Of a stretch of DNA of 64,000 bases, positions 44,268 to 45,955 are shown one piece after another. A program made the position numbers and the translations under genes. Where the stretch lies: positions 175,832,001 to 175,896,000 of the forward strand of contig OZ024743.1 of assembly GCA_964016885.1 (NCBI GenBank), read 5' to 3'. The first letter of the stretch is position 1; each line of letters begins with the position of its first letter. This stretch comes from Eledone cirrhosa. Its lineage: Eukaryota. The notes under the pieces were generated by a model. The model worked only from the letters and a program-made list of their open reading frames with translations. It did not search any database and was not told the origin of the DNA.

Positions 44268-44720
44268 TATGCATACTTACATTTATGTATCAGCTGTGCT
44301 AGGGCGAGACATGATATTCTAATTTCATTTTTACTTTTCGGCAAGGTCAGCCGTAACTCGCTCGGTATGCAAATGAGGCTACTCAGCCGATGTGTACCGA
44401 AGAAAATACTATATATTTTCAACCGTTCAACAGATTGGTAGAGATATACAGTTCTGATGAAGGGTAATAGCCTAGAAACATGTTGATTGTTCCTCAGTGC
44501 CAGTGTTGAACAAATGGATGACGATTTGTCATCGGCACGGCACAGGTTTAATCAGGTCGTTTGTTTACAAACGGATCGAATATAATGTTCGATATAACCC
44601 ATACGTACATATGTATATGTATATGTGTGTCTGTGTATATATATATATATATATATGTGCACGTATGCATACTTACATTTATGTAACAGCTATGACAGGG
44701 CGTGGAATAAAATTGTAATT
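44268..44720 (+). mobile_element. Retrozyme-like subfamily B, ~395 bp monomer with terminal direct repeat; HHR 44449-44489
   Basis: gtatgcatacttacatttatgta at 44268 and 44664; octamer 44367-44374; cagtt CTGATGA AGG gtaatag CCT a GAAA C at G TT gattg; colinear with family A. Confidence 0.8.
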
Positions 44721-44994
44721 TTATATATATATATATATTAATTCCTATATATGGTCTGTGAGTTTGCAAAGCTGCGATGATTGGAAATCTACAAATTGGA
44801 TTTAAATCTGAACTGCCTTAAGCAATCTGGATGTGGACAGAATTATATAAGAACTTTAAATATCTAATGCCTTATATATCGCTAGATATGCAAGATACAC
44901 ATTCATATATCGAAAATCGATCGACTTCCGTCAAATCGGACCGAGGAAACAATGTTTCCATTGGTCTTTCCAATTGCTAATACTATCTATCGGT

Positions 44995-45135
44995 CGCAAC
45001 TCCAGGTAGAAGGAACAACGTGAAATAAAATGTCTTGCTCAAGGACATAACGCATCGCCCGGTTCGGGAATCGAACTCACAACCTCACCATTGTCAATAA
45101 TCTAGTTCTCTAACCACTCAGCCACGCGCCTCCAC
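44995..45135 (-). mobile_element. tRNA-derived CORE-type SINE
   Basis: Minus strand ggaggcgcgtggctgagtggttaga..gagttcgattccc..tgtccttgagcaagaca (A box, B box, CORE-like domain). Confidence 0.7.
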
Positions 45136-45322
45136 ATATATATATATATATATATATATATATATATATATATATATATATATATATATATATATATATA
45201 TATATATATATATATATATATATATATATATATATATATATATATATATATATATATATATATATATATATATATATATATATATATATATATATATATA
45301 TATATATATATATATATATATA

Positions 45323-45955
45323 TAATTAAGTTAAAAAAAAAAAAAAAAAAAAATGTACATCTACATATGCATACTGAAATACTAGTGTGTATATGAATAC
45401 ACACTAGTTTAAGCGTCAGTCATACAAAAGTGAGTTACAAACGAAGCGAAATTTAATTTCGTTTCGTTATTTGTTTTTATCGTCTCCGCTGAACCGGTGC
45501 GTACTCACACTCTATGCAAATTAGTCTGCCCACTACTAATTTTCATAGAAAAAGCATATAACGATATGTGCTTTTACAATTCTCCAGAAAGGCCGGTAGA
45601 TAGGTAAATATTGCTGATGAGTTGTAACAACAACGAAACTAGTTCAATATTCCTTGTCTGGCTTTCTGTAGAATAGAGGGAAGGTGTTCCCCCGAAAACC
45701 AGTATGACTCTAAAAACCGGTTTGTCTGTGTGTTTACATACAGAATAGCTGGGCTGCTCACTGTAAAGCAGCCAGTGAAAGACTTGGTACACCTACATAT
45801 GTATACGTGTGTGTATTCATATACACACTAGTATTTCAGTATGCATATGTAGATGTACATTTTTTTTTTTTTAACTTAATTGTTTAAGCGTCAGTCATAC
45901 AAAAGTGAGTTACAAACGAAGCGAAATTTAATTTCGTTTCGTTATTTGTTTTTAT
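45323..45955 (+). mobile_element. Retrozyme-like subfamily C, 475 bp monomer with inverted 5' piece and partial tandem; HHR 45607-45651
   Basis: 45407-45480 repeats at 45882-45955; 45323-45404 is the reverse complement of ~45807-45881; octamer 45514-45521. Confidence 0.82.
45607..45651 (+). ncRNA. Minimal type I hammerhead ribozyme, subfamily C
   Basis: aatattg CTGATGA GTTGT aaca ACAAC GAAA C ta G TT caatatt; perfect helices I and II. Confidence 0.9.

Follow-up and report, generated by a model that had tools for sequence, protein, structure and literature searches.

Hammerhead repeats of Eledone cirrhosa carry a conserved octamer–TATA layout with U3-like spacing, a candidate internal promoter

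Hammerhead repeat families at the locus

The window, a 64,000-nt stretch of the Eledone cirrhosa genome (contig OZ024743.1, positions 175,832,001 to 175,896,000), contains six copies of three hammerhead repeat families, A, B and C:

27361..28488, minus strand: family A insertion of 1.7 units plus an inverted arm; octamer 27734-27741, TATA 27699-27694, hammerhead cores at 28129 (−), 27653 (−) and 28216 (+)
36946..37405, minus strand: family A copy; octamer 37297-37304, hammerhead GAAA changed to AAAA
38552..39308, minus strand: family A partial tandem; octamer 39019-39026, hammerhead core 38938
44266..44720, plus strand: family B unit, about one monomer plus a short terminal direct repeat, flanked by microsatellites
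45349..45955, plus strand: family C insertion (L100), an inverted 5′ piece (45349-45404) followed by about 1.15 units to the 'long' 3′ end before (TA)n
52392..52895, minus strand: family A copy; octamer 52734-52741, hammerhead core 52653

All three families are non-coding repeats with a type I hammerhead. Their unit holds no ORF (none of 200 aa occurs in 44268-45955), which makes them non-LTR retrozymes by the definitions of earlier work (PMC7229834; bioRxiv 10.64898/2026.07.22.740005). As ORF-less head-to-tail units, they also differ from autonomous Penelope-like elements, which carry a reverse transcriptase (RT) and GIY-YIG ORF within the unit. Units measure about 466-467 bp, with a period of 466 bp and an internal (TA)n in A and a period of 467 bp in C. 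Head-to-tail arrays of both families exist at other genomic loci, and the C runs listed there include ones of 12 and 18 units. Pattern searches of the host genome, which spans 3.0 Gb and is rich in microsatellites, recovered the further families D (old, divided into two subgroups), F and G. None of 30 B, 30 D and 25 F loci showed unit-length tandems. Searched for on its own, the A-type core gives 12,578 exact matches genome-wide.

The hammerheads of A, B and C are of type I with a short palindromic stem III. Those of B and C lie at:

44425..44515, plus strand: B type I hammerhead with palindromic stem III; core 44454-44484, predicted cut 44484/44485, fold z −3.2
45580..45680, plus strand: C type I hammerhead; core 45614-45644, predicted cut 45644/45645

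The three-helix form is predicted for both (z −2.5 for C) and for F (z −6.0); the D fold is weak, and in the A copy that was folded the core is mutated. A change of GAAA to AAAA probably leaves the ribozyme of the A copy with its octamer at 37297-37304 dead. Against Rfam, the C hammerhead matches HH9 with an E-value of 1.4e-6, under the gathering score; at the gathering threshold, a scan across the window returned no hammerhead and just one tRNA (13138-13210), and the E-value scan of the window was dominated by microRNA matches to (TA)n.

Other repeats share the window. A very abundant further hammerhead family with the core CTGATGATTTC...GAAACAG lacks the octamer and often sits beside (TA)n (positions 1742, 12636, 12807, 14797, 14962, 17855, 59387 and 59394). 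A tRNA-derived SINE-like sequence, recognized by eye, lies between the B and C copies (about 44975-45136, minus strand), broken LINE-like ORFs that look RTE-type by eye occupy 9847-11890 (plus strand), and two-copy tandem repeats are found at 46224-46504 (144 bp) and 49294-49495 (99 bp).

A shared layout upstream of the ribozyme

A preliminary description of this locus, made from the letters alone, had placed an octamer about 80-92 nt upstream of the hammerhead core in six copies. All six octamers were confirmed, and each is followed by a CTGAYGA core 79-92 nt past the octamer end. The (t/g)ag(g/t)ct extension that it had attached to the octamer fails in the copy at 39019-39026, which reads TAAGCT. 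In B and C, the elements between the octamer and the predicted start are:

44366..44377, plus strand: B extended octamer TATGCAAATGAG
44383..44386, plus strand: B PSE-like core TCAG, +16 from the octamer; a weak match to the host core
44410..44416, plus strand: B TATA box (+43)
44440, plus strand: B predicted transcription start, the A of YAG (+73), placed by analogy with the host U3 layout
45513..45524, plus strand: C extended octamer TATGCAAATTAG
45530..45533, plus strand: C PSE-like position CCAC (CA at +17/18); a poor fit to the host core
45555..45561, plus strand: C TATA-like box CATATAA (+41)
45586, plus strand: C predicted transcription start, the A of YAG (+72)

Octamer numbers in the window are marginal when taken alone (10 against 5.0 expected, a count reached by 5 of 100 shuffles). 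The linkage to the ribozyme is far more specific: TATGCAAAT(G/T)AG followed by the hammerhead core (CTGATGA) has 11,939 matches genome-wide against 0 for the reversed control, and the linked pattern outside A and B has 306 against 0. Among 21 further octamer–TATA loci (7 + 14), two have an intact core at the expected distance; several of the rest are visibly decayed or truncated family members, and some appear unrelated. Other hammerhead families did not yield the octamer, which is carried by 0 of 18 Rfam Hammerhead_1 matches and by none of the non-ABC hammerhead clusters in 509 kb of sequence. Twelve matches to the same layout were found in metagenomes; none folds as a hammerhead, and they were taken as chance.

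Besides the catalytic core, what A, B, C, D and F all keep is TATGCAAAT-A, a CA at +17/18 and the ATA of a TATA box located at +40 to +44. In nine natural representatives of these families, 10 of 12 octamer columns are invariant, which equals the conservation of the catalytic core, and the octamer-to-TATA distance is 40-44 in eight, the ninth having no TATA match. A YAG follows at +70 to +75, where the geometry of U3 would place the start, in 8/8 representatives, although the eight are not independent and YAG also falls within the extended stem I; in the A insertion at 27361-28488, the predicted start is 27669 on the minus strand. Predicted RNA folds leave the octamer and YAG partly base-paired, so RNA structure could contribute to their conservation. 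The preliminary description had instead chosen TAATTTTCATA as the conserved middle element common to A and C. This sequence is confined to A1 and C, being missing from A2, B, D and F, and was ruled out as a PSE; the conserved middle elements are the CA and the TATA box.

We then considered conservation within families. D and F had originally been found with the octamer in the search pattern, and were therefore resampled by the ribozyme side only; the A sample was likewise not selected on the octamer. In A, all 23 kept rows have an intact octamer, whose variation is 0.4% against a median of 3.6% (p 0.003; 30 loci, with six truncated rows and the reference excluded, and several rows from shared arrays). 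In D, octamer agreement is 87% against 72-78% in the flanks, and 14 of 26 kept rows, out of 90, are intact. In B, octamer variation is 1.1% against 5.5-10%, in a sample whose query itself included the octamer. In F, 10 of 25 rows were kept and 7 of them have the octamer, which shows no conservation beyond that of its flanks (p 0.47). The earlier expectation of an octamer better conserved than its neighbours thus stands across families and in three of four within-family tests, and fails in F.

These comparisons bear on whether the shared motifs are simply relics of common ancestry, kept without selection. Such a history would accommodate the probable homology of the families, the loss of the octamer from old D copies and the lack of excess conservation in F. 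The nine representatives, however, are just 39-65% identical between families, yet keep those 10 octamer columns invariant, and decay in dead copies is to be expected after insertion; we regard the neutral reading as largely refuted and very improbable.

Two further features were noted along the way. Members of F and G (L196, L432, L433 and L444) have AATCAC or AATCAG at the core position, nearest to the host U1/U5 core, and F carries an inverted octamer-like box immediately upstream, making a hairpin possible.

Host small-RNA promoters

For comparison, we assembled the small-RNA promoters of the host, a set without U4atac. Twelve of 20 U6 loci carry ATGC(A/T)AAT(T/G)AG at -76 to -78; the others are six array copies with an insertion at the octamer site, which displaces the box, and two retrocopy-like loci. 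The same box lies at -77 in U6atac (one of six loci, the rest being retrocopy-like) and in RNase MRP. Of seven host Pol III type 3 promoters, five have the exact 12-mer TATG(C/G)(A/T)AAT(T/G)AG at -76 to -78, with the TATA box 46-48 nt from the octamer in all five. RNase P and 7SK have the core without an octamer, at a core-to-TATA distance of 32-33. Host Pol III genes end in runs of T5-T10.

No octamer was found at -76 to -78 in any of 21 U1, U2, U4, U5, U11 and U12 loci; what they carry is a YCA(G) core between -55 and -58 together with a TATA-like box near -30. In 14 of 17 host Pol II snRNA promoters, the core-to-TATA spacing is 25-27. The U3 gene, which is transcribed by Pol II in metazoans, has a layout of its own. 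ATGTAAAAT, a 6-of-8 variant of the octamer, is present in all six U3 loci examined; in the four that were measured, it lies at -73/-74, TATA follows 42 nt later, and transcription starts at +73/74. In keeping with Pol II, a T4 run is missing from the 3′ end of three of these four copies.

Which polymerase

The repeats resemble both host groups in part. With U3 they share an octamer-like box, a TATA box at a comparable distance and, for the predicted start, the offset; with U6, U6atac and MRP they have the exact 12-mer in common, and the host TATA box lies 4-6 nt further away. The conserved CA places a PSE-like core at +16 in the repeats, about 26 nt before TATA. At this site, a model with Pol II spacing beats one with Pol III spacing in all nine representatives (PSE-to-TATA spacing is conserved in Pol III promoters of insects; PMC1761439), and in six of the nine the Pol II-spaced model places it among the two best of 504 positions. 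The best local core score falls exactly at +16 in five of seven, within the top 1.4-10% of positions. Scores for the core alone (-1.8 to 3.3) nevertheless lie well under those of the host (5.6-11.6 for 16 of 17 host genes, each left out in turn).

When whole promoters were compared, the U3 locus L403 gave the best summed match of 25 host promoters across eight representatives (214/416, z 6.4), with the U6 locus L001 a close second (212/416) at a higher z of 7.6, its octamer in register and its TATA box out of step. For B, U3 fell outside the top five. The host distal element ACYTCCCTT, about 260-285 nt upstream in host genes, is absent from the units and dimers of A and C, as are 3′ box look-alikes from their units. 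The internal snRNA-type promoter proposed in the preliminary description passes the sequence tests with a different middle element, and its likeness to the host holds for the octamer and is weak for the PSE-like core.

That description left the polymerase open. Because the octamer-to-TATA spacing is like the 42 of U3, and unlike the 46-48 of the U6 group, an internal U3-like Pol II promoter is the best reading of the spacing, which favours Pol II. The main competitor is a compact type 3, U6-like promoter, from which Pol III would have to read through T4-T5 runs. The 12-mer belongs to 5/7 host Pol III type 3 promoters and to none of the U1, U2, U4, U5, U11 and U12 loci, and of the host promoters compared with the repeats, U6 L001 reaches the highest z. 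From the predicted start to the second ribozyme, A has T4 runs only, and T4 might be read through where host terminators are T5-T10. Together, the 12-mer of the U6 group and the T4 runs of A keep Pol III a real rival. Yet the corresponding stretch of C contains T5, T5, T4 and T4, two T5 runs thus preceding the second ribozyme; the five host Pol III cases space their TATA 46-48 nt from the octamer against 40-44 in the repeats; and the 42-nt layout is already used by the host in U3, mostly without a T4 run at the 3′ end. We consider transcription by Pol III unlikely.

A further possibility dispenses with the promoter altogether: the octamer might serve as an enhancer for a POU factor, or as an RNA-level signal bound by a helper or ligase, in repeats transcribed by read-through and with a TATA box that is incidental to AT-richness. 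A review states that retrozymes seem promoterless and rely on read-through (PMC7761336). The genome is indeed AT-rich, both circular folds have the octamer base-paired, and the match of the PSE-like core is weak. Against this, neither a POU site nor an RNA signal explains why four elements (octamer, CA, TATA and YAG) keep host-like spacing across otherwise dissimilar families, and by inspection the pairing partners of the octamer vary between families while its sequence stays constant. We judge this alternative quite improbable, and return to a U3-like Pol II promoter within the unit. On that reading, which draws on motif spacing and conservation, the repeats likely drive their own transcription and would not depend on neighbouring genes.

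Insertion marks and mobility

The ends of genomic copies suggest how the repeats spread. The 3′ ends of 25 C loci occupy two positions, either about 360-365 nt or 434 nt past the octamer, and 16 of the loci have one long and one short 3′ end; A likewise has two, at 370 and 429. TA repeats follow 40 of 44 C 3′ ends, and the 44 C 5′ ends are scattered, with none at the predicted start or at the cut site. C and A thus bear the marks of Penelope-mobilized sequences: 5′ truncation, inversions, a one-sided 3′ tail and (TA)n targets. EN+ Penelope-like elements, which have a hammerhead and a pseudo-LTR promoter, are described with 5′ truncation, partial tandems, inverted 5′ copies, a tail at one end and (TA)n targets (bioRxiv 10.1101/2021.04.23.441226); their tail is 30-40 nt against about 60-70 nt here, and the repeats here lack an ORF. 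The absence of 5′ ends at the cut (0/44) and the long, near-identical arrays fit a circular or multimeric template. Judged by these marks, the repeats look like a non-autonomous retroelement that borrows a Penelope-type RT and whose spread would depend on it. The term 'self-promoting RNA replicon', offered in the preliminary description, is accordingly an overstatement, given insertion marks of an RT-dependent, non-autonomous element.

ORF remnants that we take to be Penelope-like (RT/GIY-YIG) occur in the window at 5542-7892 (plus), 15428-17413 (minus), 22714-25212 (plus), 49433-50059 (minus) and 61928-63943 (plus). Pfam returned no family at cut-off for four of them, so the label reflects motifs that were read by eye. 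The ORF at 22.7-25.2 kb sits between direct-repeat hammerheads at 22128 and 26842; the octamer is absent from the hammerheads beside the Penelope-like ORFs of the window.

Discussion

From the motifs, their conservation, the match to host promoters, the tandem arrays and the insertion marks, we infer a promoter, its polymerase and start site, circularization, and a helper. Our main reading, to which we assign a probability of roughly 60%, is that the octamer and TATA box, spaced as in U3, form an internal Pol II promoter of the hammerhead repeats, whose circles are copied by a Penelope-type helper. Pol II would start about 72 nt after the octamer, some 15-30 nt before the ribozyme core, and in an array the transcript would cross the rest of the unit, the promoter of the next unit and a second ribozyme. 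Two cuts would then free a unit-length RNA that contains the promoter sequence, a host ligase would likely circularize it, and a borrowed Penelope-type RT/endonuclease would copy the circle into new (TA)n sites, yielding new tandem, truncated and inverted copies. Copies with a single ribozyme, including all six in the window, would be dead ends. No copy in the window combines an intact promoter with two same-strand hammerheads, so none could regenerate the unit from its own promoter; the claim that a tandem copy does so fails for these six and can hold for the arrays elsewhere. With B, D and F also lacking unit tandems, most copies are presumably dead ends, and the model explains why tandem copies alone should propagate.

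Schistosome repeats, Penelope elements and newt satellite 2 are earlier examples of the logic of a promoter combined with tandem units. The promoter of newt satellite 2 is reported to include an octamer. This 330-bp amphibian satellite is a tandem hammerhead repeat with a reported internal snRNA-type promoter that drives Pol II (PMC2220036; PMC6765202), and what the present repeats add is TATA in the layout, a host U3 model and at least five families. In the SINE-like SM-alpha hammerhead repeats of Schistosoma, a promoter likewise lies ahead of the ribozyme, with single copies as dead ends and tandems that propagate; that promoter is reported as Pol III (PMC6765202), whereas the candidate here, of the upstream snRNA type, sits within the unit. 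Animal non-LTR retrozymes are similar in their non-coding tandem type I hammerhead units, and a circRNA intermediate with a Penelope-like helper has been proposed for them as well (Cervera and de la Pena 2020, PMC7229834; bioRxiv 10.64898/2026.07.22.740005). Their units are typically about 300 bp (PMC7229834), against 466-467 bp here, and term searches of these two sources returned no description of a promoter. The review that regards metazoan retrozymes as seemingly without promoters (PMC7761336) contrasts with the conserved host-type layout reported here. We found no literature report of this layout in any mollusc, although subscription papers or supplements could hold one, and the main text of the Octopus vulgaris repeat annotation (PMC13282606) mentions neither ribozymes nor promoters.

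Retrozyme circles are reportedly abundant in most animal tissues, yet the elements are described as seemingly promoterless (PMC7761336). The present model names a candidate promoter, polymerase and start nucleotide, each open to direct test, and links the finding in the newt to an invertebrate far removed from it. More tentatively, an ancestral ribozyme circle may have taken up a host promoter of U3/U6 type that was then kept through at least six families, so that animal retrozymes would be self-transcribing parasites of the snRNA machinery and not passengers of read-through; we hold this possible but doubtful. If true, newt satellite 2 would exemplify a general rule, and more than ten thousand dispersed octamer–TATA cassettes would constitute a large pool of ready promoters or POU-factor sites.

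As a by-product, the comparison yields a grammar of host small-RNA promoters (the U6-type octamer at -77, TATA on Pol II snRNA genes, and a core-to-TATA spacing that sets Pol II apart from Pol III), which could be useful for guide-RNA or small-RNA expression cassettes in the host animal. The distal element ACYTCCCTT was observed at -255 to -286 in many U1, U2, U3, U6, U11, U12 and RNase P loci, and TATA-like boxes near -30 accompany host Pol II snRNA genes (L051-L082, L309-L334, L402-L409); vertebrate Pol II snRNA genes are not known to have such boxes. In the U6 array L003 (C19), a second ATGCTAAT box with a downstream TATA lies about 1.35 kb upstream of each U6, and this box, present in each 1.8-kb array unit, may belong to the promoter of a small RNA that lacks an annotation. 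U6 and U6atac retrocopies are also numerous (L085-L092, L014, L094-L098), several of which abut (TA)n at the 5′ end or are fused to SINE-like tails at the 3′ end.
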